A program made the position numbers and the translations under genes. This document shows, one piece after another, positions 4,923 to 63,291 of a stretch of DNA of 64,000 nt (the stretch's first letter is position 1; the number at the start of each line of letters is the position of its first letter). Origin of the DNA: Bacillota bacterium (lineage in GTDB: Bacteria > Bacillota > UBA4882 > UBA10575). Under the pieces are notes generated by a model that saw nothing but the letters and a program-made list of their open reading frames with translations, searched no databases and was not told where the DNA came from. Location of the stretch: contig DUNX01000094.1 of NCBI GenBank assembly GCA_012839115.1, positions 88-64,087 on the forward strand, read 5' to 3'.

Positions 4923-5129
4923 CAAATTGTTATCAATAGGCTAAAATTTCATAAACGGCAGGAGAATAGGGGAAAATACAGAATAAAATTTAAATGTATC
5001 CAACAGGTGCGGAAAAATGCGGGTTTTACCTGCCGGTGAAGATTTGCCCTGTTATATGCAGATATGCGTATTAACGACGCGTGCGAGCGCGCGAGCAAAC
5101 CAATAGGCAAAAGAAGAGGAGGACGGCTG

Positions 5130-7838
5130 ATGTCAAAGAAACTAGTGTACTTTTTTGGCGCTGGAAAAGCAGACGGTACCGCGGAAATGAAAAATCTGTT
5201 GGGAGGTAAAGGCGCTAACCTGGCTGAGATGACCAATCTCGGCATACCGGTTCCGGCCGGGTTTACGATTACGACAGAGGTCTGCACGGCTTACTATGAA
5301 AATAATGAGCAGTGGCCGGCAGGACTGGAAGACGAGATTAAAGAGAACATCCGTAAAGTGGAAGAGGCTATGGGGGCCAAGTTTGGCGATGCAGAAAACC
5401 CCTTACTCCTTTCCGTCCGTTCGGGCGCGAGGGTTTCCATGCCGGGAATGATGGATACCGTTTTGAATCTGGGCCTCAATGACGAGACGGTACAGGGTTT
5501 GATTAAAAAATCCGGGAATGAGTGGTTTGCCTATGACAGTTACCGCCGGTTCATTCAGATGTACGGTAATGTGGTTTACGGGATCGATCACGACAAGTTC
5601 GAAGCGATACTCGATGCCAGGAAAGAAGAAAAAGGATATAAGCTTGATACGGATATGGCGGCGGAAGACTGGAAGGATATGGTGGTCCAGTTTAAGCAGT
5701 TGTTCAAGGAAGAAATGAAGATGGAGTTCCCGTCCGATCCGTGGGAACAGCTGAAGGGGTCCATAAACGCCGTTTTTTCATCTTGGATGAACCCGCGGGC
5801 AATTACTTACCGGCGCTTGAATAAGATCCCGGAACACTGGGGAACCGCTGTAAACGTCCAGACCATGGTCTTTGGCAATATGGGCGAGAGTTCCGCCACC
5901 GGGGTGGCCTTCACCAGGGACCCTGCCACCGGTGAGAATAAGTTTTACGGTGAGTTTCTCATCAACGCCCAGGGTGAAGACGTGGTGGCCGGGATCCGGA
6001 CGCCGCAGCAGATCAGCCTGGAGGCCTCGAGAGAGTGGGCGAAGAACAACGGGATCGCCGAAGAAGACCGGAAGAAGAATTTCCCGTCTTTGGAAGAGTA
6101 CATGCCCGGGATTTACCAGCAGTTGCTGGGGATCAGGGATAAATTAGAGAAACACTACCGCGAGATGCAGGATGTTGAGTTCACAATCCAGGAAAACAAG
6201 TTGTATATGTTGCAGACCCGCGCCGGGAAGCGGACCGGAGCGGCCGCGGTACGTATCGCCGTAGAGATGCAGCAGGAAGGGTTGATTGACGAAAAAACCG
6301 CCGTCCTCCGGGTCCAGCCGGAACAGTTGGACCAGTTGCTCCACCCGATGATTGACCCCAAAGCCAAGGTTACACCGGTAGCAAAAGGCCTGCCGGCCTC
6401 CCCCGGCGCCGCCGTTGGCCGGGTGGTCTTTACCGCCGCTGACGCTGAGGAATGGGCGGCCCGTGGGGAAAAGGTGATTTTGACCCGTCAGGAGACCAGC
6501 CCCGATGATATTGGCGGGATGCACGCGGCTGTCGGGATCTTGACCTCCCGTGGCGGCATGACCTCCCACGCGGCGGTGGTCGCGCGCGGAATGGGCAAGT
6601 GCTGTGTTGCCGGGTGCGGTGACGCTGTTATCAACAACAACGAAAAAACCTTGACCCTTAATGGAAATGTCCTGCGGGAAGGCGACTGGCTGACTCTGAA
6701 CGGTTCAACCGGCGAAGTAATCCTGGGCCAAACCGACCTGGTGGAACCGGAGATTACCGGGAATTTCGGAATTTTGATGTCCTGGGCGGACAAGTACCGT
6801 GACCTCCGGGTACGTACGAACGCCGATACCCCGCATGACGCGAAAGTAGCCCTGGAGTTCGGCGCCGAGGGTATCGGGCTCTGCCGGACGGAGCACATGT
6901 TCTTTGGTCCGGAAAAAGAGCGGATCCAATACATGCAGGAGATGATTTTGGCTGATAACACAGGGGACCGTGAAGCGGCTTTGGTCAAACTTCTCCCGTA
7001 CCAGAAGTCTGACTTTATCGGGATTTTCGAGGCGATGGACGGCCTGCCCGTAACCATCCGGCTTTTGGACCCGCCGTTACATGAATTTTTACCGCATGAT
7101 GCCAAGGCGCAGGCGGAGATTGCCGGAAAGATCGGCTTAGAGCCGGCTGTTTTAGCGGTCAAAGTGGAAGCCCTGGCAGAATTCAACCCCATGTTGGGTT
7201 TCCGTGGTTGCCGGTTGGGCGTGGTTTATCCGGAGATCTATAAAATGCAGGTCCGGGCGATTTTTGAAGCAGCCTGCGAGTTAGCGAAGAAAGGGAAGAA
7301 CGTCATGCCGGAGGTCATGATCCCGTTGATCGGGACCACCGGTGAGATGAAGACGATCAAGGAGTATGCCATCGAAGTAGCGGAAACGGTAATAAAAGAA
7401 TACGGCGTAGAAGTCGAGTATATGATCGGCACCATGATCGAGATCCCGCGGGCGGCCTTGCTCGCCGGTGAGATTGCCCAGGACGCGGAGTTCTTCTCCT
7501 TCGGCACCAATGACCTTACCCAATTGGCCTTTGGTTACAGCCGGGATGACGCCGGGAGATTCCTCCCGCTCTATGTAGAGAAGAAGATTCTGCCCTTTGA
7601 CGTCTTCCAGTCTCTAGATAAAGAGGGCGTAGGCGAGCTGGTGAAGATCGGGGTCGAAAGAGGGCGCGCTGCCAGGACGGACCTGAAGATCGGGATCTGC
7701 GGAGAGCACGGTGGCGATCCGGACTCGGTGAAGTTCTGCCACGAAGTGGGCATGAATTATGTTTCTTGTTCACCCTTCCGGGTGCCTTTGGCCCGCTTGG
7801 CCGCAGCACAAGCCCAGTTGACAAAGCCGCGGAACTAA
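5130..7838 (+). CDS. ppdK: Pyruvate, phosphate dikinase
   Basis: Full-length PPDK-like translation: MSKKLVYFFG...GGKGANLAEM, phospho-His region GGMTSHAAVVARG, and a C-terminal PEP-utilising domain with Cys in GICGE. The ATG at 5130 is preceded by AGAGGAGGA. The longer track ORF starting at 5064 is probably an over-extension. Confidence 0.95.
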   Translation: MSKKLVYFFGAGKADGTAEMKNLLGGKGANLAEMTNLGIPVPAGFTITTEVCTAYYENNEQWPAGLEDEIKENIRKVEEAMGAKFGDAENPLLLSVRSGARVSMPGMMDTVLNLGLNDETVQGLIKKSGNEWFAYDSYRRFIQMYGNVVYGIDHDKFEAILDARKEEKGYKLDTDMAAEDWKDMVVQFKQLFKEEMKMEFPSDPWEQLKGSINAVFSSWMNPRAITYRRLNKIPEHWGTAVNVQTMVFGNMGESSATGVAFTRDPATGENKFYGEFLINAQGEDVVAGIRTPQQISLEASREWAKNNGIAEEDRKKNFPSLEEYMPGIYQQLLGIRDKLEKHYREMQDVEFTIQENKLYMLQTRAGKRTGAAAVRIAVEMQQEGLIDEKTAVLRVQPEQLDQLLHPMIDPKAKVTPVAKGLPASPGAAVGRVVFTAADAEEWAARGEKVILTRQETSPDDIGGMHAAVGILTSRGGMTSHAAVVARGMGKCCVAGCGDAVINNNEKTLTLNGNVLREGDWLTLNGSTGEVILGQTDLVEPEITGNFGILMSWADKYRDLRVRTNADTPHDAKVALEFGAEGIGLCRTEHMFFGPEKERIQYMQEMILADNTGDREAALVKLLPYQKSDFIGIFEAMDGLPVTIRLLDPPLHEFLPHDAKAQAEIAGKIGLEPAVLAVKVEALAEFNPMLGFRGCRLGVVYPEIYKMQVRAIFEAACELAKKGKNVMPEVMIPLIGTTGEMKTIKEYAIEVAETVIKEYGVEVEYMIGTMIEIPRAALLAGEIAQDAEFFSFGTNDLTQLAFGYSRDDAGRFLPLYVEKKILPFDVFQSLDKEGVGELVKIGVERGRAARTDLKIGICGEHGGDPDSVKFCHEVGMNYVSCSPFRVPLARLAAAQAQLTKPRN

Positions 7839-7854
7839 AAAAGGCAAATATAAA

Positions 7855-7891
7855 AAAAGAGGGAGAAACGCAAGTGCTCCCTCTTTTTTTG
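7855..7891 (+). terminator. Intrinsic terminator after ppdK
   Basis: AGAGGGAG (7858-7865) pairs with CTCCCTCT (7877-7884). Followed by T6-7. Confidence 0.8.
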
Positions 7892-8206
7892 CCCCCGGAT
7901 TGGCCCAGTTCCTTCATGCTTTTTATAACCGCTTGGCTCCGGCGCCTTTCATGCTTTCCACCACTCCCGGGTAAACTGTACGGGAGAGGCTTTTCCCGCA
8001 ACAAAAGGAGTACCGGTGGGCGCCTCCGGCTGCGCGGCGTGCCGGACAACCCGGGCAGTTTCGCCAAAGCCAAGGGACTATTGGGCACGCGAAAGCTGTT
8101 GGTCTAGGATTGTTTGGAATTTTTTCTTGGTAAAGGGATTACTGCGCATGCAAAGACCGTTGGCGTGGTGAGATGCTCCAGGTAGAATACCCATTGGAGT
8201 GGTGGG

Positions 8207-9328
8207 ATGTTTCAGGTAGAATATGGAGTAGTCCTCCGGGTCACCCGGGACCTGCCCGGCCTGCAAGAGGCCGTGGTACAGGTGGGGGAGGAAACCGCTC
8301 CTGCCCTTAATTATCCGGCGTTGACAGGCCGGGTCAAAAAGGGCGACCGGGTTACGCTTAATACCACAGCCGTCCGTTTGCAACTGGGAACAGGCGGCTA
8401 CCATTTTGTCATGGGAGTTGAAGGGGCCGTTGGGGGCGCCGTGGCGAAAGGGGTGGCCGCGGGCGGCCACATTATGAAACTCCGGTATACCCCCTGGCAG
8501 GTTAAGGTGCGAGCGGCTGAAGAAGAAGAATCCCCGCATCACCAGGAGATAAAAGGCTTTTCTTCCCTGGATGGCATCCCGGTGCTTGTCGGCGGTTTGC
8601 ACAGTATGATCGCACCGGCGCTCCTGGCCTACCGGGCGTTGCAGGCCGCCCCGGTCCGGGTGGCCTATATTATGACGGACGGTGCGGCCCTGCCGCTCCC
8701 CTTCAGCAGGCTGGTGCGGAAGTTGAAAGAATGCGGGCTGTTGCAAACGACAATTACCTGCGGTCATGCCTTCGGGGGCGATCTGGAGACGGTGAATTTC
8801 TATTCGGCGCTGGCGGCGGCAAAGGCGGCGGCCGGCGCCGGGTTGATCCTGGCGGCGATGGGCCCGGGGATTGTGGGGACCGGAACCAGGTACGGTTTTT
8901 CCGGGATTGAACAGGCATATATGCTTGAGGCCGTAGAAAGGTTGGGTGGAAAACCGGTGGCCATCCCCAGGGTTAGTTTTGCCGATCCCCGCCCCCGCCA
9001 CCACGGGCTCAGTCACCACAGCAGAACCGTTCTGTCGCAACTCACTTATGCCAAGGCGTTTATTGGCTTTCCCCGCTGGCGGGATGAGCGCGGGCAACTC
9101 TTGGCCGGGCAGATCCGCGAGGAACGGCTGGTCGAGAAACACCGGGTATTTTTTGTTGATCCCCCGCCGCTGGCCGGGCTTTTTGCCGGGTATGACCTGG
9201 AGGTAAAGACCATGGGCCGTTCCTGGCAGGAAGACCCGTCTTTTTTTGAGACCGCCGCCGTCTCCGGGGTGGTGGCCGCCGCTTTGGCCGCAGGCAAAGA
9301 GGATGATCTGGAAGGAATTCAAAACTGA
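8207..9328 (+). CDS. Conserved hypothetical protein (resembles the DUF3866 family from memory)
   Basis: 373-aa ORF with normal codon and amino-acid usage. No catalytic motif recognised. It sits upstream of nudF, as in other Clostridia. The antisense 414-aa ORF is Arg/Gly/Pro-rich shadow. Confidence 0.6.
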   Translation: MFQVEYGVVLRVTRDLPGLQEAVVQVGEETAPALNYPALTGRVKKGDRVTLNTTAVRLQLGTGGYHFVMGVEGAVGGAVAKGVAAGGHIMKLRYTPWQVKVRAAEEEESPHHQEIKGFSSLDGIPVLVGGLHSMIAPALLAYRALQAAPVRVAYIMTDGAALPLPFSRLVRKLKECGLLQTTITCGHAFGGDLETVNFYSALAAAKAAAGAGLILAAMGPGIVGTGTRYGFSGIEQAYMLEAVERLGGKPVAIPRVSFADPRPRHHGLSHHSRTVLSQLTYAKAFIGFPRWRDERGQLLAGQIREERLVEKHRVFFVDPPPLAGLFAGYDLEVKTMGRSWQEDPSFFETAAVSGVVAAALAAGKEDDLEGIQN

Positions 9329-10055: not shown

Positions 10056-10739
10056 TTGTCCTTTCATAATTATGTAACCAGGACAGGGGGTGGGGATTTG
10101 CTCTCCGAATACCGGCGGGAGGCTGTAATCAGATACATAGAAGATCGTATTTTCATCTTTCTTCTGGTCACATTGATTTTTATCACCGGCATTATTGGCG
10201 GCGCAGTTGCCGTCAACGGGCTGCGGGAAGGGCAGAAACTGGAGTTAGCCCAATATCTCCATCTATTTTTTCAAGGGTTTAAGCAGGAGAGCCGGCCGGC
10301 AGTGGATTTTGTCCCGGCCGGGAGGATCGTTCTCTCGCATTTGAAAACCCTTTTTCTCCTTTTTCTCTTCGGCTTTAGTGTCATTGGCGCGCCAGTAATC
10401 CTCTTTATTGTTTTTACCAAAGGCTTTATTCTCGGGTTTACAGCCGGTTTTATCCTGGAACAATGGGCGGGGCGGGGCTTTCTCTTTGTCATCGCCTCTC
10501 TTATTCCCCACCATATCCTGATTGTACCGGCGGTTTTGATCGCCGCCGTTGCCAATATTGATTTTGCCGGCGCGCTTTTGAAAGGTCGTTGGGGAAAGAA
10601 GGTCCCGTATCCGTTAACCGGGGAATTACTCCGCTGTCTGGGACTGAACGGTGCTTCTTTTCTTCTCTTGCTCATTGCAGGGTTGGTGGAAGGAGTGCTT
10701 TCCCCGTATTTGATTTACTGGGTGGCGCAGCTTTTTTAA
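10056..10739 (+). CDS. spoIIM: Stage II sporulation protein M
   Basis: Polytopic membrane protein of about 210-227 aa with SpoIIM-like topology. Conserved position between nudF and xerD. The real start is possibly the TTG near 10097. Confidence 0.78.
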   Translation: MSFHNYVTRTGGGDLLSEYRREAVIRYIEDRIFIFLLVTLIFITGIIGGAVAVNGLREGQKLELAQYLHLFFQGFKQESRPAVDFVPAGRIVLSHLKTLFLLFLFGFSVIGAPVILFIVFTKGFILGFTAGFILEQWAGRGFLFVIASLIPHHILIVPAVLIAAVANIDFAGALLKGRWGKKVPYPLTGELLRCLGLNGASFLLLLIAGLVEGVLSPYLIYWVAQLF

Positions 10740-10905
10740 GTGGAAAACTTTCTCTTGAATTTAAAAAAGGAATTCCCAATTAATATGTCGAAACTGAGAG
10801 AAGAGAATAGAGGCGCGCGGGCAACAGATACGTACGCGCCGATTAATGTCTTGTGCGCCGTATCTGCCATGAGTGAGAACGAGGAGATAATCCGAGGAAA
10901 AGGAG

Positions 10906-11809: not shown

Positions 11810-12040
11810 AATTCAGGTACATGCCATAAGGATGATGCTATAAGCCTGATGTCATAAGGATCTTTCACGTGCTCAATTAGTCCGCTTTAAGCGTGCACGC
11901 ATAAAAAAGCGTGATGCATAAGGCGTACACGCCAAAAAGCACCGTGCTCAAAAGCGTCGCGCTTTTAGTGCCGCGCTTTTAAGCGTAAGCGCAACCTTTA
12001 AACGCGTGACGCCTGTAGCGCGTGTTTTTTTATTTTTGTT
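11810..12040. repeat. Word-rich convergent spacer (CATAAGG x3-4, AAGCGT x4, GCGCTTTTA x2, GTGCTCAA x2; 10-nt palindrome GCGTGCACGC at 11891-11900)
   Basis: Read directly between the xerD stop (11802) and the stop of the minus-strand gene (12088). Ends in a T-rich run at 12024-12040. Confidence 0.6.
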
Positions 12041-16447: not shown

Positions 16448-16515
16448 GAGCACGAGCAACGAGTTACGAGCAACGAGCGACGAGCAACGAGAGACGAGTC
16501 TGCGACGAGCACTGA
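16448..16515. repeat. ACGAG(C/T/A) word array (8 copies at 6-9 nt spacing)
   Basis: GAGCACGAGCAACGAGTTACGAGCAACGAGCGACGAGCAACGAGAGACGAGTCTGCGACGAGCACTGAG, read directly upstream of murD. Confidence 0.85.
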
Positions 16516-19267: not shown

Positions 19268-20243
19268 TGGCAACAGCTATAACATGGAATTTGAAAAACC
19301 GCTGCGGGAATTGGAGAGGCAGATAAAGGAGATCGAGCTTTTCGCCAAAGAAAAAGAGATTGACATGAGCGAAGAGATCGCGCGCCTGCAAGATAAAGAA
19401 GAAGCTTTAAAGAAAAAGATCTACAGTGAACTGACCCGCTGGCAGAAGGTGCAGATTGCCCGTCATCCCAAACGCCCTACCTTCCTGGAGTTTGTTGAGA
19501 TGATCTTCAGCGGTTTTCTGGAATTACACGGCGACCGGTTGTTCCGGGACGACCCGGCGATGATCGGCGGTATTGCCTATTTAAATGATATCCCCATTAC
19601 CGTGGTGGGGCAGCAGAAAGGGCGCGATACCAAGGAAAACATCTACAGGAATTTTGGGATGCCCCATCCGGAGGGCTACCGGAAAGCCCTGCGCCTAATG
19701 AAACAGGCGGCTAAATTTAAGCGGCCGGTAATCACCCTTATCGATGTGGTAGGGGCTTATCCGGGGATCGAAGCGGAAGAAAGAGGACAGGGAGAAGCAG
19801 TGGCCCGTTCGATCATGGAGATGGCGGCCCTGGAGACCCCGATTATTGCCGTTATTACCGGCGAAGGCGGGAGCGGCGGCGCTTTGGGGATCGGGGTGGG
19901 CGACCGCATTCTCATGTTGGAGCATGCTTATTATTCCGTGATTTCTCCCGAGGGTTGCGCTTCGATTCTCTGGAAAAATGCGGCGGAGGCGCCACAGGCT
20001 GTGGAGGCCCTGCGGGTAACAGCGAAAGACCTATTGCAACTACAGGTGATTGATGAGATAATTCCGGAGCCGTTGGGCGGTGCGCACCACGATCCGGAAA
20101 AAACCGCCAAGACCATTAGAGAAGCTCTGATCCGTCATTTAGCGCCGTTATTGGAATACCCGGCCGGACAGCTGCTGGCGGAGCGGTATGAGAAGTACCG
20201 GAAGATTGGAGTTTTTGAGGAAATAGAGCAGACAGAAGAGTAG
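19260..20243 (+). CDS. accA: Acetyl-CoA carboxylase carboxyltransferase alpha subunit
   Basis: [17 protein letters not shown] start region, IARHPKRP and [10 protein letters not shown] motifs. Overlaps the accD stop. Confidence 0.92.
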
Positions 20244-20284
20244 CACGCGTGTGTCAAGTTTCAAAGAGGCTAAGGGGGAAGCAG

Positions 20285-22864: not shown

Positions 22865-22965
22865 GAAGGCGTTACACAAATGCACTATATGAATGGATTA
22901 CGCGAAGGCCCATGCGCACCGGGGGGCCTGCGAAAACGTGCCCGCGCAAGGCGTGCGAAGGATCC
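22865..22965. repeat. GCGAAGG-type word cluster in the pyk / radical-SAM spacer
   Basis: GCACGAAGGCG, TACGCGAAGGCC, CTGCGAAAACG, CGCGCAAGGCG and TGCGAAGGATCC read in series. Confidence 0.5.
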
Positions 22966-29209: not shown

Positions 29210-30555
29210 AAAAGGCGGTTGTGGCCATTGTCGGCCGGCCGAATGTGGGAAAATCCACCCTCTTTAACCGGTTGACCGGCCGGCGGGTGGCGATCGTTGA
29301 AAGCATTCCCGGGGTAACCCGTGACCGCTTATACGCGGAAGGGGAATGGGCAGGCCGGCGTTTTTTTCTCGTCGACACCGGCGGGATCGCCCCCGTGCAG
29401 CCGGATGACCCAATACAGCAGCAGGTTTACGAACAAGCCGTATTGGCCGTGGACGAGGCGGATCTCATCCTCTTTGTCGTGGACGGGCCGGCCGGCCTTC
29501 AGGCACTGGACCGGGAGGTTGCGGATATTCTCCGCCGGGCAGCCAAACCCGTGGTTTTGGTCGTCAATAAAGTCGACTCGTTCCAACCTGGGTGGGGAGC
29601 GGATTTTTATGCCCTGGGTTTTGGCGAACCGGTCCTGGTCTCAGCGGAACACGCTTTAAACCTGGACGAACTTTTCGAAGCCATTGTTTCGCACTTGCCG
29701 CCCGCCGTGGCCGAGGATGAGACCGCTGCGGTCAAGGTGGCGATTATTGGCCGGCCGAATGTGGGCAAGTCATCGCTGGTCAATGCCTTACTCGGTGAGG
29801 AACGGGTTATTGTCAGTTCCGTTCCCGGGACTACCCGGGATGCGGTGGATACGCCCTTACGTTTTCAAGAGCAGGATTTTCTTCTTATTGATACCGCCGG
29901 GATTCGTGCGCGCGTGCGCGCGCGCTCGCGCGGGCACGCGTCCCAGGGTGCGGTGGAGTATTACAGTGTGCTCCGGGCTTTACAGGCGGTGGAGAGATCC
30001 GATGTCACCCTGGTGCTGCTGGATGCCGCGGAGTTCCTGCTGGAACAGGATAAAAAGGTGGCTGCCATCCCGCACGAAGCCGGCAGGGGCACAATTCTGG
30101 TGGTGAACAAATGGGACCTGGCGGAGAAGACCTCCCGGACAGCCCAGGAATATGAACGGCGGCTCCGGATGGAGATGCCTTTTATCCGGTATGCGCCCGC
30201 CCTTTTTCTTTCAGCCCGGACCGGTCTGCGGGTGGGACGGGTTTTCCCGGAAGTCATCCGGGTGGCCGCAGAGTACAGCCGGCGGGTGCCGACAGGCCGG
30301 CTTAACCAGGCGCTCCGTGAAGCGGTGGACAGGCGCCACCCCCCCTCCCGGAAGGGGAAAACACTGAAAATCTATTATGCCAGCCAGATCCAGGTCAAAC
30401 CGCCGACGATCCAATTTTGGGTCAATAATCCGGAACTGGTCCACTTCTCTTACCGGCGGTTTTTAGAGAACAGGATCAGGGAGGAATTCGGTTTTACCGG
30501 TACTCCCCTCCGGCTTTTTTTCAGAAAAAGAGGGAGAAAAGCAGCGGAATACTAG
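29206..30555 (+). CDS. der: Ribosome-associated GTPase Der (EngA), two tandem G domains + KH-like domain
   Basis: Two P-loops (GRPNVGKST, GRPNVGKSS), two DTAG and two NKxD motifs. The ATG overlaps the upstream stop. Confidence 0.95.
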   Translation: MKKAVVAIVGRPNVGKSTLFNRLTGRRVAIVESIPGVTRDRLYAEGEWAGRRFFLVDTGGIAPVQPDDPIQQQVYEQAVLAVDEADLILFVVDGPAGLQALDREVADILRRAAKPVVLVVNKVDSFQPGWGADFYALGFGEPVLVSAEHALNLDELFEAIVSHLPPAVAEDETAAVKVAIIGRPNVGKSSLVNALLGEERVIVSSVPGTTRDAVDTPLRFQEQDFLLIDTAGIRARVRARSRGHASQGAVEYYSVLRALQAVERSDVTLVLLDAAEFLLEQDKKVAAIPHEAGRGTILVVNKWDLAEKTSRTAQEYERRLRMEMPFIRYAPALFLSARTGLRVGRVFPEVIRVAAEYSRRVPTGRLNQALREAVDRRHPPSRKGKTLKIYYASQIQVKPPTIQFWVNNPELVHFSYRRFLENRIREEFGFTGTPLRLFFRKRGRKAAEY

Positions 30556-36183: not shown

Positions 36184-36347
36184 CAAGATAGGGGCCTTTG
36201 GGTAAAATATTGAAAGAATTCCCGCCGGTTTTTCCTCGCCGCGATGGACTTGCGCGCCCGCGCGCAATCGGCCATGGAAAGCAGCGAGTTTTTTTATAGA
36301 CGCCCCCACAAAGGGTTATCAATTTTGACTTTAAGGAGGAGTTTATC

Positions 36348-41069: not shown

Positions 41070-41255
41070 AGAAGCGATACCCTGCCGTGTGCGTGGTGAA
41101 GCTGAAGTTATGAACCAACACCATTACCTGGGGAGCCGGACTCTGTTAGCGGCATGTAAGCCTTCGTGGTAAGGACACATAAAGCGAACAGGAGGCGCCC
41201 ACCTGCAAGAGCGGGTTCAGGTAACATTCAGCGATAGCGCCATGGCGGGGTTTTT
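41070..41255 (+). ncRNA. ssrS: 6S RNA
   Basis: About 185-nt non-coding segment directly after aspS (as for B. subtilis 6S-1) and directly before the 5-formyl-THF cyclo-ligase gene (as for E. coli ssrS-ygfA). The 5' arm ACCCTGCCGTG (41079-41089) pairs with the 3' arm CATGGCGGGGT (41241-41251) to form the closing stem. Ends in T5. Internal sequence is compatible with a large central bubble. Confidence 0.7.
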
Positions 41256-42999: not shown

Positions 43000-43306
43000 G
43001 ACTGGATAAAAGTCACCCTCCGTAGAATACCCTTCTTCCCGGGAGATTTCACCAAGGATGGGGGAATTGCCAGGATAAGGAAGTAAAGGCCCGGATTTAC
43101 TGCGCTTAGGAGAAAAGCCGGAGAAGAAGTGTGGTTGTTTCCATGGGGGGCAAGTGATATAATAGCAGAAGTAAGATCCATGCGCAACGGGCGCGGAAAC
43201 CCCCGCTCTTTTTTTGCGTTATGAAAAGCAGGGTCAACAAGGTCGAAAAGAAGAAATTTTCACCGCGCGCGAGTCTGCCTATAGAGAGTTTGGACAGGAA
43301 GAAGGG

Positions 43307-47149: not shown

Positions 47150-47283
47150 GATAACGGCGTGCGTGCGCCCGTAGAACCGGGCGGATGACGTGTGGCGGCG
47201 TGCGCGCAGGAGCGGGTAATAAATTTGGGGCGTGCGGCGTAGAAACAGGTGATAAATTTATGGTGCGCGGCACAGAAACGGAG
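47148..47283. repeat. About four degenerate ~33-bp units (..ATAA..GGCGTGCG..GTAGAAAC..)
   Basis: TAATAAATTTGGGGCGTGCGGCGTAGAAACAGG (47217-47249) and TGATAAATTTATGGTGCGCGGCACAGAAACGGA (47250-47282), plus two more diverged units upstream. Confidence 0.7.
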
Positions 47284-47292: not shown

Positions 47293-48006
47293 TTGCCGTT
47301 CTTAAAAAAATGGGCCAGGCTGGTTCTCATCTGCAGCCTGCTGGTAATAGCCATAATCCTTTTTTCCGGCGTGACCCTTTTCAACCACTACCTGGAGAAG
47401 GAGTTTACGCAAACGATCACGAGAGAGACCAAAATAGCGGAGGATATAGATTGGCATCTGGCGCCGTTGGGCTTATTTGATCTGATCCGGGGGCGAACAA
47501 GGGATCTTCAATTTTCCGCCGGCCGCTTGGCTTTTCAGGACGGACCGGTCCTTGAGGATTTTACTCTCAAGAGCCGGGGTATTCAGTTGAACCGGAATGC
47601 CTTCTTGTTTGAGGGGAAGATCGAGGTTCAGAAATTGGCCGAAACGGAATTGACCTTCCGGATCGCCGAAACGGAATTGACCTCCTTTTTGCAGGATGAG
47701 TGGCCGGAATTCGTTCCTTCCGTAGAGTTATCGCCCGGGGCCGTCAGGATCGAAGGAATAGTCAAGGAGCCGCTTTTAAAAGAGGAATTACCCTTTACCG
47801 CTTCCGTCCGCCTGGAACAGGCCTCCGGTAACAGTTTACGCCTAACCCCTGTCAACATTAAGATCGGTGATTTTGAGGTGCCGCCCGGGGTATTTGCGAA
47901 AGAGATCTTGAACTGGCAGTTTCCCCTGGAACTGCCCTGGCCTTTAATGATCAAAGATTTCCAGGTGGAAGAGGGGTTTTTGCGCATGCAATGGCGGGAG
48001 AAATAA
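47293..48006 (+). CDS. Membrane-anchored hypothetical protein, DUF2993 / LmeA-like (tentative)
   Basis: 237 aa. N-terminal TM, then beta-rich repeats with the pattern seen in DUF2993 proteins. Family assignment is from memory only. Confidence 0.5.
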   Translation: MPFLKKWARLVLICSLLVIAIILFSGVTLFNHYLEKEFTQTITRETKIAEDIDWHLAPLGLFDLIRGRTRDLQFSAGRLAFQDGPVLEDFTLKSRGIQLNRNAFLFEGKIEVQKLAETELTFRIAETELTSFLQDEWPEFVPSVELSPGAVRIEGIVKEPLLKEELPFTASVRLEQASGNSLRLTPVNIKIGDFEVPPGVFAKEILNWQFPLELPWPLMIKDFQVEEGFLRMQWREK

Positions 48007-48051
48007 AACGGCAAAGAGTGTACCGGCCCCTGGTTTGAGGAGGGAGAGAAG

Positions 48052-49263
48052 ATGAGGTATTTCGTTTCCGCCGGGGATCACTCCGGGGATATGCATGGTG
48101 CAACTTTGGTCCGGGAGATCAGAAAACTTGACCCGGGGGCGGAGTTCTACGGGATGGGCGGACCGCTGCTGGCCGGGGCGGGAGTTAAGATTTCCTTTGA
48201 TCCCACCCGGTACAGTACGATTGGTTTTTTGGAGGCAGCCGGCCAATATTTTCGTTTTCGCCGTTTACTCCGGGTTTTTACCCGCCTATTAACGGAAAAC
48301 CGGCCCGACGTTTTGCTCTGGATTGATTTTGGCGGCTTTAACCTGGCCTTGGCAGAGCAGGCACGGAAACTATCCATTCCGGTCGTCTGCCTTTTTGCCC
48401 CTTCCGCCTGGGCCTACGGGAAAAAAAGGGCCGTCCGGATGAGGAATTGTGTCTCGCATTTGGCCGCGGTCATGGGGTTCGAAGCCGATTTTTTCCGCAG
48501 TTTCGGGCTGAAAGTGACCTATACCGGCCATCCCCTGCTCGATAGAGTTGAGGGCGTTCTTCCCCGGGAACAATGGCGGAAGACCCGGGGGATTGGGGAT
48601 GAAGAAACCGTTGTGGTTTTAATGCCGGGAAGCCGCAGGCAAGAGGTGGAGGCTTTGCTCCCGGTGATGCTGGCGGCGGCAAAAAAACTTGCCGGCGAAG
48701 ACCCGGAGGCGGGCAAAAAAATCCGGTTCTTTTTGCCCCTGGCGCCGACGATCGAGAAATGGCGGTTAAATGCTTTACTGGCGAATTTCCCGGAGGTCAC
48801 CGTGGTCAATGAAGATATCTATCCTTTGCTGGCCGGGGCCGACCTTGGCGTGATTACTTCCGGTACCGCCACTTTGGAAGCGGCGCTCCTGGGGTTGCCG
48901 GCGGTTGTCGTTTACCGCCTTTCCCCCATTACGGTCTTTATCTTCCGGCGGTGGCTACGGAATAAGGAGGAGAAGAACAGGGAATTATTGGTTGCCCTCC
49001 CGAACCTGATTGCCGGGAGGAAAGTCATCCCCGAGCTTATCCAGGAAGACCTGACCCCGGAAAACCTGAAAAACGAGATGGCAAAGTTATTATGGGACGA
49101 AAAGGCCCGGGCGGAGATCAAGGCGGAATACACAAAGCTCCAGGGCCAACTGGGTCCGCCCGGGGTGATGGCCAGAGTCGCCCGGATCGTTATGGCGGAA
49201 GCCCAGGCCCGCCCCAGTCCTAAAGCAGGGCAAGATACACAAGAGAATGAACATGCCCAATAG
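48052..49263 (+). CDS. lpxB: Lipid-A-disaccharide synthase homologue (GT19, LpxB-like)
   Basis: 403 aa. Alignable by eye with E. coli LpxB along its length: SAGDHSGDMHG (cf. AGETSGD), APSAWAYGKKR (cf. SPSVWAWRQKR), LMPGSRRQEVE (cf. LLPGSRGAEVE), LPNLIAGRKVIPELIQ (cf. LPNLLAGRELVKELLQ). Confidence 0.85.
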   Translation: MRYFVSAGDHSGDMHGATLVREIRKLDPGAEFYGMGGPLLAGAGVKISFDPTRYSTIGFLEAAGQYFRFRRLLRVFTRLLTENRPDVLLWIDFGGFNLALAEQARKLSIPVVCLFAPSAWAYGKKRAVRMRNCVSHLAAVMGFEADFFRSFGLKVTYTGHPLLDRVEGVLPREQWRKTRGIGDEETVVVLMPGSRRQEVEALLPVMLAAAKKLAGEDPEAGKKIRFFLPLAPTIEKWRLNALLANFPEVTVVNEDIYPLLAGADLGVITSGTATLEAALLGLPAVVVYRLSPITVFIFRRWLRNKEEKNRELLVALPNLIAGRKVIPELIQEDLTPENLKNEMAKLLWDEKARAEIKAEYTKLQGQLGPPGVMARVARIVMAEAQARPSPKAGQDTQENEHAQ

Positions 49264-49402
49264 CGTGCAGCCTTGGCAGCGTGACCATGCGCAGCAGCGT
49301 GACACCGCAAAGAGCGGGACGAACCCGGAAGGAAAATAGCAGGATGGTGTTCTAGGTCTCCCCCTTCTGACATATGGTAAACTGTGAAGATCAGAAGACG
49401 GG

Positions 49403-50278
49403 GTGGAGGCCTTGCGCATCCTGGTTTTTTCAAAAAAACACTTTTTCGGCCTTACCCTGCTGATATTATTGGCAGGGTCTTTTTTTCTCCGGCCGGCGGG
49501 TATGGTTGATATTATCCGGCAGGCTTCCGTCGTTTTGAGCGGACGAATTATCCCCATTTACTCTGTGGAGACCCCCGAAAAAAAGGTGGCCATCTCTTTT
49601 GATGCGACTTGGGGTGCGGACCAAACCCCTAAACTGTTGGAGATTTTAGCAAAAAACCAAGTACGGGCCAGTTTTTTCCTTTGCGGCCTTTGGCTGGAGA
49701 AATACCCGGAGATGGTGAAGGCGATTGCCCGGGCGGGCCATGAGATCGGTAACCATACATATACCCATCCCCACCTGAACAAGATGGCAAAGGAAGAGAT
49801 CGCCCGGGAACTGCTGAAGACCCACCGCTTAATCCAGGAGTTGACAGGGCAAACCGCCACCCTTTTTCGTCCCCCCTTTGGCGAATACAACAACAAAGTG
49901 ATTGAGACGGCAGCCGGGTGCGGTTATACCACAATAATTTGGGATATTGACTCCCTGGACTGGCAGGATCTCTCCGCCGCCGCCATGCTGGAACGGGTCC
50001 AAAAACAGCTACGGCCCGGAGCGATCATTCTCTTTCATAATGCCGGGAAGCACACGCCGGAAGCGGTTGCCGCCCTTTTGCCAATCCTGAAGAGCAAAGG
50101 GTATTCGGTGGTACCCATCTCCCAGCTTTTGCTTAAGGGGGAGACCTATACGGATCATACCGGACGCCAGCGGTTGAAGATGCGCACGCGCGCGAGTCCT
50201 CCTGCAGGGGACGGGTCAATTCGCGGGCGGGCGTACGACTTCTACCATTTGCTGGTATCGGGGAGGGGGTACAGGTAA
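49403..50278 (+). CDS. Polysaccharide deacetylase (NodB homology domain; PdaB-like sporulation type)
   Basis: FDATWG, GHEIGNHTYTH and LFRPPFGEY motifs with an N-terminal TM. Has an unusual Arg-rich C-terminal tail of about 45 aa. Confidence 0.85.
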   Translation: MEALRILVFSKKHFFGLTLLILLAGSFFLRPAGMVDIIRQASVVLSGRIIPIYSVETPEKKVAISFDATWGADQTPKLLEILAKNQVRASFFLCGLWLEKYPEMVKAIARAGHEIGNHTYTHPHLNKMAKEEIARELLKTHRLIQELTGQTATLFRPPFGEYNNKVIETAAGCGYTTIIWDIDSLDWQDLSAAAMLERVQKQLRPGAIILFHNAGKHTPEAVAALLPILKSKGYSVVPISQLLLKGETYTDHTGRQRLKMRTRASPPAGDGSIRGRAYDFYHLLVSGRGYR

Positions 50279-51261: not shown

Positions 51262-51579
51262 GATTCGCACGGTGGCGCCTATAAAAAGCAAAATACGCAT
51301 TATTACCATTATTTGCTAGATTGAGTTACTCTTTTTTTAACATCGAGAAAAAGGAAGAAAGAGAAATATGGCGTATATAGTAAAAGAAAACAGATACTCC
51401 AGGAAGTAAACAAGCCGTGCGCAAGAGCGTGCAAATTCCCGCCTACACAGGTCCCGCATACGCGGGCGTCGCGTACAAGGGAAGGGGTGAAAAAATAAAA
51501 CGGGCGTCAAGTCCCGCGCCCGCGCGCTGGTGCGCCGCTTACGCAGTAGCTTGTGGAGTAAAGAGGAGGCGTTTTTAAG

Positions 51580-52139: not shown

Positions 52140-52465
52140 GATTATAACGATGACCGGAAGGAGTAGCCCCGCGTGCGGATCCCGCCACAGCAGACTTTCA
52201 CCATATGTGGCAGGGAATCGCGGGCGAACCTGCAGCAGAGAACGGGTCCGGCGCAGGCGCGCAAGGCTGGAAGACCCGGCAGGGGCAGGGGTGAAGGTCG
52301 TCCGGGAGTTCTCCGGCTGAAAAGCTGCAAAAAGGCACAGGAGTAAGCCGGAGCGGCCAGGCCCGTTAACGCCGCGCAAGCGCCCCTGTTCCGCCCTGGC
52401 GTACAGGGGAAAAAAGGTGGTACCGCGAAGACCTTTCGTCCTTTAGTGATGGAAGGTCTTTTTTC
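52140..52465 (+). promoter_or_regulatory. T-box riboswitch leader (valS)
   Basis: Stem I start AACGATGA..GGAAGGAGTAG (GA motif + AGTA box), AGAGA box (CAGAGAAC), F-box-like CCGTTAA, and the conserved T-box sequence AAAAAGGTGGTACCGCG (52411-52427). This overlaps a terminator (AAGACCTTTC / GGAAGGTCTT + T6, 52428-52465). GTC triplets occur in the candidate specifier region GAAGGTCGTCC (~52293-52303). Confidence 0.85.
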
Positions 52466-52553
52466 TCGTCATGGTTATACAGCGCGCACTAAATGAAGGA
52501 ACGGGAAACGGCAAAACAGATACGTTATACTTGTTATACGGCGTGCACGCAAA

Positions 52554-55211
52554 ATGGAGGGGATTAAGTTGTACCGGCAATTGCCCAAAGTCTATGAACC
52601 GCAGAAGGTAGAGACAAAGTGGTATGATTACTGGCTGGAGAAGGGTTTTTTCCATGCTGAGGTGGAGAAGGAGAGGAAGCCTTTTTGTATTGTGATCCCG
52701 CCGCCGAATGTTACGGGAAAACTCCATCTCGGCCACGCCCTGAACAATACCTTGCAGGATATTCTCACCCGTTACCACCGGATGAAGGGAGATAATGCCC
52801 TCTGGCTTCCCGGGACGGACCACGCCGGCATCGCCACGCAGGTCCGGGTGGAAGAGGAATTGGCGAAGGAAGGCCTAAGCCGCCATGAACTAGGACGGGA
52901 AGAGTTCCTCAAACGGGTCTGGGCTTGGAAGGAAGAATACGGCGGGACCATCATCCGGCAGCTGAAGCGGTTGGGCGCCTCCTGCGATTGGGACCGGGAA
53001 CGGTTCACCATGGACGAGGGGTGCTCCCGTGCGGTAAAAGAGGTCTTTCTCCGCCTCTACCGGAAAGGCTTGATTTACCGCGGGAGTTATCTGGTAAACT
53101 GGTGCCCCCAATGCGCCACCACCCTGTCGGATATCGAGGTGGAACATGAGGAGAGCGAAGGAAGGCTCTGGCATATCCGTTACCCGCTGGCCAGTGGGGA
53201 CGGTTACATCCAGGTGGCCACCACCCGGCCTGAGACGATGCTGGGTGATACGGCCGTGGCCGTCCACCCGGGAGACGACCGCTACCGGGGACTGGTAGGG
53301 AAAAAGGCCATCCTGCCCCTGATGAACAGGGAGATCCCGATTGTTGCCGATCCGATGGTGGACCGGGAATTCGGGACCGGGGCGGTGAAGATCACCCCCG
53401 CCCATGATCTTAACGACTTTGAACTGGGACTCCGGCATAACCTGCCCCAGGTTACGGTGATCGGTTTTGACGCCCGGATGACCGTGGAGGCGGGTAAATA
53501 TACGGGGCTGGACAGATATGAGGCAAGAAAAAAGGTGCTGGCGGATCTGGCGGCCGAAGGCCTCCTGGCCGGAGAGGAAGTACACCATCATGCCCTGGGG
53601 ACCTGTTACCGCTGTGATACGGTGGTGGAACCGCTCATCTCCAAACAGTGGTTTGTCCGGATGAAACCCCTGGCGGAACCGGCGGCCCGGGTGGTCAGGG
53701 AAGGGAAGATCCGCTTTGTCCCTGAACGTTTCGCCAAGGTCTACCTGAACTGGCTGGAGAATATCAGGGACTGGTGTATCTCGCGGCAGCTTTGGTGGGG
53801 ACACCGGGTCCCGGTCTGGTATTGCCTGGATTGCGGTACGGAAATCGCCGCCGCCGAGACGCCGGAAATCTGCCCCGATTGCGGGAGCAACCGTATGGAA
53901 CAGGACCCGGATGTCCTGGATACCTGGTTCTCTTCGGCGCTTTGGCCCTTTTCCACCCTGGGCTGGCCGGAGAACACGCCTGAACTGGAGCATTTCTATC
54001 CCACCTCGGTCTTGGTCACCGCCCGTGACATTATCTTCTTCTGGGTGGCCCGCATGGTCTTTATGGGCCTGGAATTCATGGAGGAGATCCCCTTTGCCGA
54101 TGTGCTCATGCACGGGCTTGTTTTGGACAAGGACGGGAAGAAAATGAGCAAGTCGCGGCCGGAGACAATTGTGGACCCGCAGGATGTCATTGATGAGTAC
54201 GGTGCGGATATCCTCCGCTTTACCCTGGCCACCGGCACCGCCCTTGGCCAAGACCAGCGTTTCCAGATGGAACGGGTGGAAGGGGTCCGTAACTTTGCCA
54301 ACAAAATTTGGAATGCCGCCCGTTTCCTCGGGATGAACCTGGATGATTATGATGAGACAAAGGGAGAAGAAGACGGATTCTCCCTCCCGGATCAGTATAT
54401 CCTCTCCCGCCTGCAGCGGGTTACCGCCGAAACCGGGGAGATGATCGACCGCTATGACTTGGGAGGCGCGGCCAACCTCCTCTATGATTTTATCTGGAAC
54501 GAATACTGCGACTGGTACATTGAGATGGCAAAACCGCAGTTAAAAGCAGGCGGGGCGGAACGCCGCCGCACCCAGCAGGTGCTGGTGAAGGTTTTCCGCC
54601 AGATTATGGTTCTCCTCCATCCTTACATGCCCTTTATTACCGAGGAAATCTGGCAGGTTCTCCCCCATGAGGGCGAGAGTATCATGGTGGTTCCCTGGCC
54701 GGAACCGGACGAAAAACTCTTGAACCCGGAGGCCGAAGAGAAGATGGGGCTGTTGATGGAAGTAACGCGGGCGATCCGGAACCTCCGGGCCGAAAGCCGG
54801 GTGGAGCCCGGACGGAAAGTTGAGGCAATCCTCCTGGCCGGCCCCGGGGAGAAAAAAGTCCTCGAAGAAAACCGCTTGTACCTGGAGGTCCTGGCCGGCC
54901 TGGGGCAACTGGCAATCCTACCGGAAGGGAGCGCCAAACCGGAACAGGCGGTCACTGCCGTGGTGAGCGGGGTTGAGGTCTACCTGCCCCTGGCGGGCCT
55001 GGTTGATCTGGAAAAGGAAAAGGAGCGGCTGGAGAAAGAACTGGCCGAACTGGAGGAGGAAAAAGAGCGACTGGGCAAGAAACTAAGCAACACCCAGTTC
55101 CTGGCGAAAGCCCCCGAAGCGGTGGTGGCAAAAGAAAAACAGAAGCTCGCCGCAGTGGCGGAGAAATACGGGAAGGTCTCCGACCGGTTGCGGGCGTTGC
55201 TGCGCGCGTGA
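52554..55211 (+). CDS. valS: Valine--tRNA ligase
   Basis: HIGH motif ([12 protein letters not shown]), KMSKS motif (KMSKS), CP1 editing domain and C-terminal coiled coil. The TTG at 52569 has better RBS spacing than the ATG at 52554. Confidence 0.95.
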
Positions 55212-55269: not shown

Positions 55270-55515
55270 AGGAAGCTGCATGAAGCATAAGGAAGCTTTA
55301 TAAACCGGAGGGAACATTATAAGCCAAAAAAGTTTTACGAACGAAACTGTGGAACCAAAAAGAAGCATTCTAAACCAAGAAAAGTTTTACGAACGAAACT
55401 GTGCGAACCAAAAAGAAGCATTCTAAACCAAGAAAAGTTTTACGAACGAAACTCTGCGAACCAAAAGAAACTTTATAAGCCAAAGGAAGCTTTCTAAACC
55501 AAAAGGAAGCTTTAT
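55270..55515. repeat. Composite A-rich repeat: three 52-53-bp units (AAGTTTTACGAACGAAACTGTGCGAACCAAAAAGAAGCATTCTAAACCAAGAA) bracketed by GGAAGCT(T/G) words
   Basis: Unit starts at 55330, 55382 and 55435. GGAAGCT words at about 55271, 55291, 55485 and 55504. Confidence 0.9.
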
Positions 55516-55543
55516 GAACCTGACGAAGGAGGAAGATGAAATA

Positions 55544-56527: not shown

Positions 56528-56624
56528 GCGCGCGTGCCACTCATCCTTGGGGACCATAGCGGGCGCCTTGGCGAACCCCGTTTGCTTTTCCACCGTGTGA
56601 AACTGAAAAAACACAGAAAAAAAC

Positions 56625-58570: not shown

Positions 58571-58624
58571 CGCGCACTGTATGCGCGTGCCAACGCAATG
58601 CGTGCGCATGCGCGTATACGCGCA
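58571..58624. repeat. Cluster of alternating purine-pyrimidine CG-rich palindromes upstream of rpsP
   Basis: 27 nt of perfect R/Y alternation at 58598-58624 (ATGCGTGCGCATGCGCGTATACGCGCA). It contains the overlapping perfect palindromes GCGCATGCGC (58604-58613) and CGCGTATACGCG (58611-58622). A further 13-nt alternating run lies at 58578-58590. Confidence 0.9.
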
Positions 58625-59739: not shown

Positions 59740-60539
59740 AGATTACAATCCTCACCCTGTTTCCGGAGATGTTCACCGGCCCTTTTTCCTGCAGTATTAT
59801 TAAGCGGGCGGCGGAAAAAGGCCTGGTGGAACTGGAAACGGTTAATCTTCGTGATTTTACCAAAGACCGGCACCGGACGGTGGATGATACCCCCTACGGC
59901 GGCGGTCCGGGAATGGTCCTCAAGCCGGAACCGGTTTTTGAGGCGGTCGAAACGATAATCGGGAAAAAGGGGCGTAAACCCTATACCGTTCTTACCACCC
60001 CGCAGGGGGAGGTTTTCCGGCAGCAGATCGCCACCGAACTGGCCGGCAAAGAAGAGCTCCTCTTTATTTGCGGCCATTACGAAGGGTATGACGAGCGCAT
60101 CCGTACCCTGGCCGACCGGGAACTCTCCATTGGTGATTACGTTTTAACCGGAGGGGAACTCCCGGCGATGGTGATGATTGACGCCGTTGTGCGGTTGCTC
60201 CCGGGGGCGCTGGGGGCTCCGGAAGCGGCAAGCAATGATTCTTTCAGTGCGGGGCTGCTGGATTACCCGCAATACACCAAACCGGCGGTCTATAAAGGCC
60301 TGGTTGTCCCCGATGTTTTACTTTCCGGGCACCACCAACAGATCGCCGCCTGGAGAAGGAGAGAGGCCTTGCTCAGGACAGCGGAAAGACGGCGGGATCT
60401 GCTGGTTCAGGCTGATCTGAGCCGGGAAGAGCGGGCTTTTCTCGCGGAAAAGTTTCCCGGGCTTTATGGGTCGGAAGATGCGCCGGCCGGAAGAACACTG
60501 AGGGGTCGCGCGCGCGGCAAAAGAGAGGAAAAGGGATAA
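59736..60539 (+). CDS. trmD: tRNA (guanine37-N1)-methyltransferase
   Basis: ILTLFPEMF, YGGGPGMV, CGHYEGYDER and LTGGELPA motifs. About 25-aa basic C-terminal extension. Confidence 0.93.
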   Translation: MKITILTLFPEMFTGPFSCSIIKRAAEKGLVELETVNLRDFTKDRHRTVDDTPYGGGPGMVLKPEPVFEAVETIIGKKGRKPYTVLTTPQGEVFRQQIATELAGKEELLFICGHYEGYDERIRTLADRELSIGDYVLTGGELPAMVMIDAVVRLLPGALGAPEAASNDSFSAGLLDYPQYTKPAVYKGLVVPDVLLSGHHQQIAAWRRREALLRTAERRRDLLVQADLSREERAFLAEKFPGLYGSEDAPAGRTLRGRARGKREEKG

Positions 60540-60909: not shown

Positions 60910-60949
60910 AATGCGCACGCGGGCGTGTGCGTAGATAGGGGGAGTACCG

Positions 60950-61580: not shown

Positions 61581-61681
61581 CCGGGGTTTACCGATCTCTC
61601 CGGTTTAAGCGCGCGCCGTGCGCGCGCTGGCCGACGGTATCTCCGGTGGTATCCGGAGTCGGAGCGAAGGAGCGGGCGTAG

Positions 61682-62986: not shown

Positions 62987-63079
62987 CCTATTGCAGCGGT
63001 GTTCTCATCTAGCGCCGCAGTTGGCGTGGTAAGTAAAGGCATATTTTTCATTGTATTGCTGCAGCCCCTGGTGGAACCG

Positions 63080-63146
63080 GCTATTAACAACCGGTTATTA
63101 ACAACCGATTGTTCACAACCGATTGTTCACAACCGATTGTTAACGG
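63080..63146. repeat. 14-bp periodic array of pseudo-palindromic units (TTATTAACAACCGG / TTGTTCACAACCGA x4.5) upstream of rnfC
   Basis: CTATTAACAACCGG TTATTAACAACCGA TTGTTCACAACCGA TTGTTCACAACCGA TTGTTAACGG, read directly about 150-210 nt upstream of the rnfC start. Confidence 0.9.
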
Positions 63147-63291
63147 TTTTTGCATTGCGCTAACAGAGGATTTGCGTTAAGATTAAGGACGGGAAGGATT
63201 CGCGCACGTGCGCGAGTAATCATATATGGCAGTGAATTGTAGGCACGCGCAGCTCTGCGCAGAATGCACGTAGAGAATGGAGTGAAACCGA

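Follow-up and report, generated by a model that had tools for sequence, protein, structure and literature searches.

Tautz, Trick and Dover are said to have described 'cryptically simple', slippage-derived sequence in 1986, and Rickettsia palindromic elements (RPEs) were reportedly described by Ogata et al. in 2000. RPEs are 100–150-bp copies of defined families that lie in-frame within protein-coding genes, where surface positions tolerate them. In cyanobacteria, the highly iterated palindrome HIP1 (GCGATCGC) is one fixed octamer that is abundant in both coding and non-coding DNA. Here we analyse CG-rich tracts of strictly alternating purines and pyrimidines (R/Y) in a 64-kb stretch of DNA from an uncultured Bacillota bacterium (assembly GCA_012839115.1, contig DUNX01000094.1), hereafter called the window. 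The tracts are enriched in intergenic spacers, are lineage-restricted, lack a shared motif, lie at random within their spacers, are gained and lost by insertion and deletion (indels), and enter coding sequence as in-frame insertions. We lean towards the explanation that they are lineage-specific, degenerate (CG)n-type simple sequence made by local insertion or expansion and tolerated under weak constraint.

The tracts resemble dinucleotide microsatellites and cryptically simple sequence in their low complexity, two-base alternation and pure (CG)4–5 cores, as well as in their gain and loss by indels between close relatives, their tolerance in spacers and disordered protein segments, and an accompanying rise in tandem-repeat density. 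Unlike microsatellites, most tracts are degenerate mixtures of CG, TG, CA and TA rather than perfect repeats; moreover, CG is a rare repeat unit, and prokaryotes generally suppress simple repeats. As in RPEs, palindrome-prone sequence is found in-frame in genes at tolerated surface positions, but the insertions described here are 12–21 nt long and without shared sequence. The lineage-specific excess of CG-containing palindromic words recalls HIP1, except that there is no fixed word and that coding DNA is depleted. Repetitive extragenic palindromic (REP) sequences and bacterial interspersed mosaic elements (BIMEs), which are mobilised by RAYT transposases, are likewise short and extragenic, show partial palindromy and differ in presence between strains. 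The tracts differ from these in having no family consensus, conserved termini or multi-copy identity, and no RAYT (Y1 transposase) gene was found among 30 window proteins scanned against Pfam. By definition the tracts would also qualify as Z-DNA-prone patterns of the RY12 type, being G+C-rich alternating runs of 10–27 nt, but such patterns are under-represented in bacteria (PMC4060949), whereas here they are over-represented approximately 5-fold in the spacers of one lineage. As R/Y patterns are generally suppressed in prokaryotes, and less so at high growth temperature (PMC4060949), the spacer excess in this organism is unusual.

Alternating tracts are enriched in spacers

A tract was defined as a maximal R/Y run with a G+C content of at least 60%. 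The window was divided into 7.9 kb of spacer and 56 kb of coding DNA using a gene map based on codon-usage scoring, inspection of ribosome-binding sites and Pfam. Gene starts are predicted, and the assignment of a few tracts close to starts might move. Spacers contained 18 runs of at least 10 nt compared to 3.7 ± 1.8 in dinucleotide-preserving shuffles (maximum 9 in 300), and coding DNA contained 10 with 8.3 expected; the density in spacers was 12.6-fold higher than in coding DNA. Coding DNA was poor in runs of at least 8 nt (25 observed, 45 expected). Densities of individual words were also higher in spacers than in coding DNA (CGCG 3.4-fold, ACGC/GCGT 2.9-fold, GCGC 2.8-fold). The top hexamer pair, GCGTGC/GCACGC, occurred 24 times in approximately 8.0 kb of spacer and 12 times in the 56 kb that are coding, which makes it about 11-fold denser in spacers.

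The runs were approximately 74% G+C. The longest was 27 nt, and most were 8–14 nt with TG/CA steps. CG accounted for 102 of the 187 pyrimidine–purine steps in spacer runs, a richness in CG steps that, together with the alternation, would suit Z-DNA formation. When the tracts were examined for a microsatellite unit, R/Y alternation was strict throughout and pure (CG)4–5 cores were present in some of them (at 43264, 60507 and 29916). Approximately 26% of the positions were A or T, and most tracts were degenerate.

An earlier inspection of the window, referred to below as the sequence-only reading, had placed CG-rich alternating palindromes in most spacers, usually just upstream of the ribosome-binding site. 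Each string that it quoted is present where it was reported, and the enrichment of GCGC/CGCG-type words and R/Y runs was borne out by the counts above. Its description of the tracts as non-random, unusual in non-coding DNA and unlike any described element also held, as Rfam recognised only a 6S RNA and a T-box leader. The extent of the phenomenon was overstated. A run of at least 8 nt was present in 20 of the 40 spacers of at least 30 nt (12.2 ± 2.1 in shuffles) and a run of at least 10 nt in 13 of them, and two segments listed as alternating (22865–22965 and 49262–49310) are largely non-alternating. The observation was real, and our analysis partly confirmed it. What it missed is the main property of the tracts, namely that they are lineage-specific, turn over rapidly by indels and enter coding sequence in frame.

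Chance and base composition were ruled out as the source of the excess by the dinucleotide-preserving shuffles and by 80 control loci. Avoidance of restriction sites is unable to account for an excess in spacers. An assembly artefact was also ruled out, because contig L086 (Ffh 99% identical), which came from a separate sample, repeats the window tracts base for base. The comparison of tract lengths within a population comprised this one contig, in which the tracts were identical.

Tract density differs sharply between close relatives

The same run count was applied to 86 ffh loci. The controls were 80 loci from other Bacillota and beyond, 27 of which had a G+C content of at least 50%. The highest spacer densities were found in the window and in L082, L083, L084 and L086, with 2–6 runs per kb. 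The shuffle expectation was approximately 0.45 per kb for the window and 0.1–0.7 per kb for the other four loci, corresponding to an excess of about 5-fold in the window and higher still in the others. L085 (Ffh 92% identical) was weaker at this cut-off, where only one run was counted (1.1 per kb); its alignments show shorter and less G+C-rich tracts. L081 (Ffh 89% identical) was at the shuffle level with few long runs, and few runs were present in L090 and L091 (Der 85–86% identical). At lower Ffh identity, no runs were found in L087 (80%) or L089 (a Hydrogenispora contig, 70%) and a few in L088 (73%). The top control locus reached 1.3 per kb from one run, and GC-matched controls were at the shuffle level. 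Tract density differs sharply between sub-lineages with 85–90% identical proteins. The window, L085 and L086 were also unusually dense in tandem-repeat arrays, with 2.0–5.3 per 10 kb compared to a median of 0 over 91 loci.

Tracts are gained and lost by insertion and deletion

Comparison of orthologous spacers, a check that the sequence-only reading had itself proposed, spoke against conservation of the tracts, which were gained and lost as clean indels. Conserved elements of the same spacers were the T-box core, promoter hexamers and ribosome-binding sites, together with terminators and, upstream of rnfC, a TTGCGTTAAGATTAAGGACGG box. The spacer between the LmeA-like gene and lpxB carries a 43-nt insertion made of tracts in L082 that is missing from the window and L081, and the ylxM-to-ffh spacer has tracts in L082 only. 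The largest cluster in the window lies before rpsP (58571–58624) and has an R/Y run of 27 nt as well as a 16-nt palindrome, TGCGCGTATACGCGCA; it is a 54-nt segment of the ffh-to-rpsP spacer common to the window and L085. A short version is present in L081, and the L082 tract is at the opposite end of the spacer. Only the window has tracts in the rplS–lepB spacer and in the spacer between lepB and the next gene. The rplS–lepB tract (60911–60933; 23 nt with one G out of phase, forming a 9-bp hairpin) is replaced by unrelated sequence in relatives, and the 9-bp-stem hairpin GCGCGCGC-CGTGCGCGCGC (61609–61627) is absent from L085 and L081.

Several other tracts behaved similarly. L090 and L091 do not have GCACGCGTGTGT (20243–20254), which overlaps the stop codon of accA and lies 30 nt before pfkA. 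Three short runs at 51416–51477 fall in a segment that is deleted entirely in L081. GCGCGCAC and GCGTGCACGCA (52482–52551), which follow the T-box terminator and precede the ribosome-binding site of valS, are missing from L081 and L082. GCGCGCGTGC (56528–56537) lies immediately 3' of a stop codon; the corresponding sequence is GCGCGCACGC in L085, and L081 has no tract. Length changes by indels between close relatives were seen in the Der loop, RimM and the deacetylase described below, in the 43-nt insertion of L082 and in the tract lengths of the ffh-to-rpsP spacer.

Over all aligned spacers, identity in tract columns versus other spacer columns was 65% versus 55% against L085, 31% versus 48% against L081, and 34% versus 51% against L082. 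Tract columns are no better conserved than the remaining spacer columns. CpG/TpG transitions were prominent among the differences in two cleanly aligned tracts, those of the RimM N-terminus and the ffh-to-rpsP spacer.

At the rplS–lepB position of the window tract, L085 has an unrelated hairpin, GGGGACGGTTCCCTGTC, that is also found in L091. This exact 17-mer hairpin occupies 6313–6329 of L085 (minus strand) and 1038–1054 of L091, in different spacers. The window has no copy, and the 17-mer may represent a small palindromic element that is dispersed in the sister lineages.

Tracts enter coding sequence in frame

Five of the 10 coding runs lie within approximately 85 nt of a gene end, and comparison with relatives identified the coding tracts as lineage-specific in-frame insertions (all on the plus strand). 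The segment 59187–59205, which the sequence-only reading listed among spacer tracts, is inside rimM. It contains a 15-nt insertion encoding HARGR at the RimM N-terminus that arose in an ancestor shared by the window, L085 and L081 and is absent from L082, L087, L088 and L089. One polysaccharide deacetylase has, close to its C-terminus, a 12-nt insertion encoding MRTR (50180–50194) that was gained in the window only. The C-terminal tails of TrmD and ValS are variable and CG-alternating, with (CG)5 in the former (60507–60516) and TGCGCGCGTG in the final codons of the latter (55201–55210).

The clearest series is found in der, where a 21-nt R/Y run encoding RARVRAR (29905–29925) expands, in frame, the switch-II loop that belongs to the second GTPase domain. 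This loop lengthens stepwise from IRRKAR through IRRARGRAS to IRARVRARSRGHAS in the window, its core by relative changing from RKAR to RARGRA to RARVRARSRG. In the window the loop is encoded by approximately 36 nt of nearly pure alternating CG, and the solved structure of Bacillus subtilis Der is without six to seven of the window loop residues. Because tracts are present in genes and in spacers, the process that produces them acts on coding and non-coding DNA alike. Such coding insertions are hard to square with a dedicated regulatory role and are easily accommodated by a mutational origin.

The tracts share no motif, boundary or preferred position

Among the tracts, the only dispersed repeats of at least 11 nt were GCGTGCACGCA and CGCGCCCGCGCGC (one 11-mer and one 13-mer), each in two copies; all longer repeats were local tandem arrays. 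None of the 6- to 8-mers stood out against a null that kept the composition and alternation of each run. GCGTGC/GCACGC was mildly above this expectation (23 versus 13.6, z = 2.7), and GCGTGCACGC was present twice. In 37 tracts we found no boundary motif in the flanks or in the first and last bases, and no conserved terminal motif of the REP/BIME kind, such as a 5' GTAG-type tetranucleotide. A 20–40-nt imperfect-palindrome consensus in many copies, as expected of REP/BIME, was also not found among the tracts.

Palindromy was compared to a null in which purines were permuted among purine positions and pyrimidines among pyrimidine positions. This null gave equally long palindromes (P ~ 0.4), so the palindromic character emphasised by the sequence-only reading is not a property in its own right; R/Y alternation automatically yields both palindromy and hairpin potential. 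For the test of placement, 58 tracts from the window and three relatives were each placed randomly within their own spacer. Twelve tracts ended 8–45 nt before a start codon compared to 12.9 expected (P = 0.67), which removes the proposed association with ribosome-binding sites. Seven began within 10 nt of a stop codon compared to 4.1 expected (P = 0.11). The tract at 56528 is approximately 90 nt 5' of the strong ylxM promoter (TTGACA-17-TATACT), and others are located inside the T-box leader, past the T-box terminator, in 6S RNA and in genes.

Three specific candidates were considered and rejected. GCGCGTG is the Lactococcus Chi site; GCGCGT/ACGCGC showed no strand skew in the window and was not abundant in coding DNA. 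Enrichment of GCGAAC prompted a comparison with the LexA (Cheo) box, the inverted half-site of which, GTTCGC, does not occur in spacers. On the sense strand GCGTGC was more frequent than GCACGC (16 versus 7). A sense-strand bias of T over A, as might result from G-U pairing in RNA or from strand-specific deamination, was confined to these few hexamers and absent across whole runs, where T made up 0.27 of the pyrimidines and A 0.26 of the purines.

Some tracts fold as RNA hairpins

When folded as RNA, the tracts gave z-scores from +0.1 to −4.4. The most stable was 34030–34075 (CGCGTGGACGCGAA...TTCGCGTCCACG) in the spoIVA-to-HU spacer, which forms a 17-bp stem (z = −4.4) and is matched in stability by none of 200 shuffles; it has no Rfam match. 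The 9-bp stem at 61608 (z = −2.5) and the tracts at 60911 (z = −2.8) and 63201 (z = −3.1) were also more stable than shuffles, while those at 5075, 36250 and 51410 folded like shuffles (z = +0.1 to −0.6). The suggestion that the tracts are 5'-UTR stem-loops was therefore upheld for those that fold, and failed for the others, which have z-scores to +0.1 or lie upstream of promoters, after stop codons or in genes.

In the Rfam search of the window, tracts appeared as parts of variable helices and not as families themselves. The 6S RNA (41076–41255, 90 bits), between aspS and the gene for 5-formyltetrahydrofolate cyclo-ligase, contains the run CGTGTGCGTG (41086–41095, plus strand). The valS T-box leader (52141–52446) scored 80 bits, under the Rfam gathering score of 93. 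The distal region of its stem I is 113 nt compared to the usual ~47 nt and holds CG-alternating helices, including CGCGTGCG (52170–52177, plus strand), a tract that is expanded in L082. Both of these runs came from our own scoring rather than from the sequence-only reading.

Origin of the tracts

The tracts are not copies of one element and not sites of one factor. We somewhat favour an origin as degenerate (CG)n-type simple sequence. Tracts would arise repeatedly by local insertion or expansion, probably because self-complementary CG repeats slip or are mis-replicated with the help of hairpins, starting from CG-rich seed sequence such as that of the Der loop. They would then drift through substitution, and would survive only where selection is weak, i.e. 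in spacers, variable leader-RNA helices, protein termini and surface loops. Both the generating mechanism (slippage or expansion) and near-neutrality are what we infer, and several points weigh against them. Insertions such as the 43-nt one of L082 are complex rather than pure (CG)n, and the lengths of indels show no obvious two-base periodicity. Tandem-repeat arrays are missing from L082 although it has many tracts. Over all spacer alignments the transition/transversion ratio was no higher in tracts than outside them, and the step of decay by transition therefore rests on two well-aligned cases. The sequence examined was the 64-kb window and approximately 100 kb of related loci. Finally, density is high in several relatives despite turnover, and selection for the property itself could be conceived.

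The main rival is accordingly one in which alternation is the selected property, acting through generic RNA hairpins or torsion-absorbing DNA. This would explain high density combined with free sequence and position, but it fits poorly with the coding insertions, the tract-poor close relatives and the random placement. In its RNA form, transcribed GC-rich stem-loops would protect or punctuate mRNA segments in operons as 5' or 3' stabilisers or as processing sites, and since any alternating CG sequence would serve, sequence and position are free to vary. The stable folds at 61608, 60911, 63201 and 34030–34075, the different hairpin of L085 at the rplS–lepB position, the sense-strand preference for GCGTGC, which would fit G-U pairing, and the density maintained in several relatives despite turnover all point this way. 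We nevertheless consider it unlikely, since other tracts fold no better than shuffles (z = +0.1 to −0.9), the T and A contents of the runs are symmetric, neither stop nor start codons attract tracts, one tract is upstream of the ylxM promoter, others are inside coding loops, and L081, L090 and L091 manage without them. In the DNA form, which the sequence-only reading had also raised, tracts might flip to Z-DNA or extrude cruciforms under negative supercoiling, and so buffer torsion or insulate neighbouring transcription units from one another. Strict alternation at ~74% G+C, here in runs of up to 27 nt, is the defining sequence requirement for Z-DNA. Mixed runs of 8–14 bp, the length of most runs here, with TG/CA steps, would need negative supercoiling beyond the usual in vivo level. 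Placement is also random relative to promoters and sister lineages do without tracts, and we regard such a role as quite improbable. It would gain from the weaker suppression of R/Y patterns at high growth temperature (PMC4060949) and from the thermophily of the nearest cultured relative (PMC8375423).

Explanations that require a shared sequence fared worse. Very short palindromic mobile elements of the REP type, or resembling miniature inverted-repeat transposable elements, could be spread by a RAYT-type transposase encoded elsewhere, and the tracts are indeed extragenic, partly palindromic, gained or lost as units and inserted in-frame into genes as are RPEs. However, their lengths vary continuously from 8 to 27 nt, their palindromy equals that of the alternation null, no word of 12 nt or more is repeated except one 13-mer in two copies, and the Pfam scan of 30 window proteins yielded no transposase. 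With no shared consensus, boundary or multi-copy word, we rejected the REP-like family proposed by the sequence-only reading, and a mobile origin now seems very improbable. Another of its suggestions, operators of one global transcription factor with a GCGTGC- or TGCGCA-like palindrome, could draw on GCGTGC/GCACGC being the most enriched hexamer pair and on the two copies of GCGTGCACGC. That enrichment is mild under the run-composition null, and tracts are lost from orthologous promoters that keep their true elements, are placed at random and in part lie within genes. No shared operator motif occurred at conserved promoter-relative positions in the orthologues, and we rejected this proposal as hardly credible. 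A further view is that the tracts are not passive debris. They could result from active, enzyme-driven synthesis or insertion of alternating CG-rich DNA at breaks or stalled forks, through a polymerase that is hairpin-primed or works without a template, or through reverse-transcriptase activity; or they could be selected, interchangeable structural modules (Z-DNA/cruciform torsional buffers or RNA hairpin punctuation) whose turnover would hide a conserved property. Both are compatible with a density that stays about 5-fold above the shuffles in the window, and higher in L082–L084 and L086, in the face of rapid turnover, and with the sharp contrast between sub-lineages. Taken jointly, these two variants are distinctly doubtful.

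A lineage in which a roughly 5-fold spacer excess spills over into protein loops is a natural experiment in the creation and tolerance of simple sequence in a compact genome. Should its cause be mutational, the contrast with tract-poor sisters could reveal the responsible change in repair or replication. If the property is selected, the tracts would be a rare case of Z-DNA-prone or generic-hairpin elements in bacterial gene organisation. On the practical side, tracts raise spacer G+C and distort covariance-model scores, as for the valS T-box, and the Arg/Ala-rich insertions that they encode may mislead annotators.

Genes and organism

The window has a G+C content of 55%, with nearly all genes on the plus strand. 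The mapped genes are all housekeeping genes: ppdK, a gene for a xerD-like recombinase, accD/accA, pfkA, pyk, der, spoIVA, the HU gene, hisS, aspS, 6S RNA, secA, prfB, the LmeA-like gene, lpxB, two deacetylase genes and valS with its T-box leader, followed by ylxM-ffh-rpsP-KH-rimM-trmD-rplS-lepB and then rnfC. The organism is uncultured, and its top Ffh and Der matches are contigs of 85–100% identity, of which those with a stated source come from anaerobic-digester metagenomes. A scan of genome-collection contigs returned relatives of ~60% identity only and missed the close ones, an exact-sequence look-up of the Ffh protein gave no match, and neither did a search with the LmeA-like protein against metagenome contigs. 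Identity of Ffh and Der was 60–70% to Hydrogenispora and Capillibacterium and ~60% to Moorella. The nearest cultured relative is a thermophile (PMC8375423). lpxB and the LmeA-like gene occur alongside the sporulation genes spoIVA and spoIIM (10098–10739, 32401–33897 and 47293–49263), which suggests a spore former with an outer membrane in the Hydrogenispora/Capillibacterium neighbourhood.

Other tracts and tandem arrays

The remaining spacer tracts, to which no strand is assigned, are as follows. The first (5075–5096, core ACGCGTGCG at 5077–5085) lies before ppdK, which starts at 5130. The run TGCGCATGCA (8143–8152) precedes a DUF3866 gene, ATACGTACGCGC (10828–10839) is approximately 75 nt before the xerD-like recombinase gene, and GCGTGCACGCATA and GCGTACACGC (11891–11932) are between convergent genes. 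Four runs are clustered in the spoIVA-to-HU spacer (33935–34145), which includes the 17-bp-stem hairpin. TGCGCGC-C-CGCGCGCA (36251–36267) is a 17-nt alternating tract with one base out of phase. The pure (CG)4 at 43264–43271 is 35 nt before secA, and GCGTGCGTGCGC and GCGTGCGCGCA (47157–47270) are part of a 33-nt unit that is duplicated locally ahead of the lmeA-like gene.

Upstream of rnfC, a perfect 16-nt palindrome, TCGCGCACGTGCGCGA, is accompanied by GCACGCGCA (63200–63251). The neighbouring GCATTGCGCTAACAG...TTTGCGTTAAGATTAAGGACGG (approximately 63150–63195) is kept in L081, L085, L087 and L088, unlike the adjoining tracts, and is probably a real operator or leader. The same spacer contains a 14-nt tandem array, AACCGATTGTTCAC, in about four copies (63075–63144); L085 has a different 14-nt array in this spacer, GCAGGTACGATTACC, with at least five copies (approximately 8650–8746).

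Other tandem arrays were found in the window. A 66-nt unit is repeated three times (96% identity) at 2613–2810 between the TPP-enzyme and racemase genes; each unit contains AGCGCGCGAACGCGCGCGG, and there is no Rfam match. The AT-rich spacer after valS (55315–55520) has 2.9 copies of a 53-nt unit followed by 19–20-nt repeats, which L081 and L085 do not have. A heptamer array, (GAGCRAC)n, occupies 16448–16498 in the spacer before murD, and a sequence resembling it, aacgagcaacgagcgacg, is present in a different spacer (ffh-to-rpsP) of L087.

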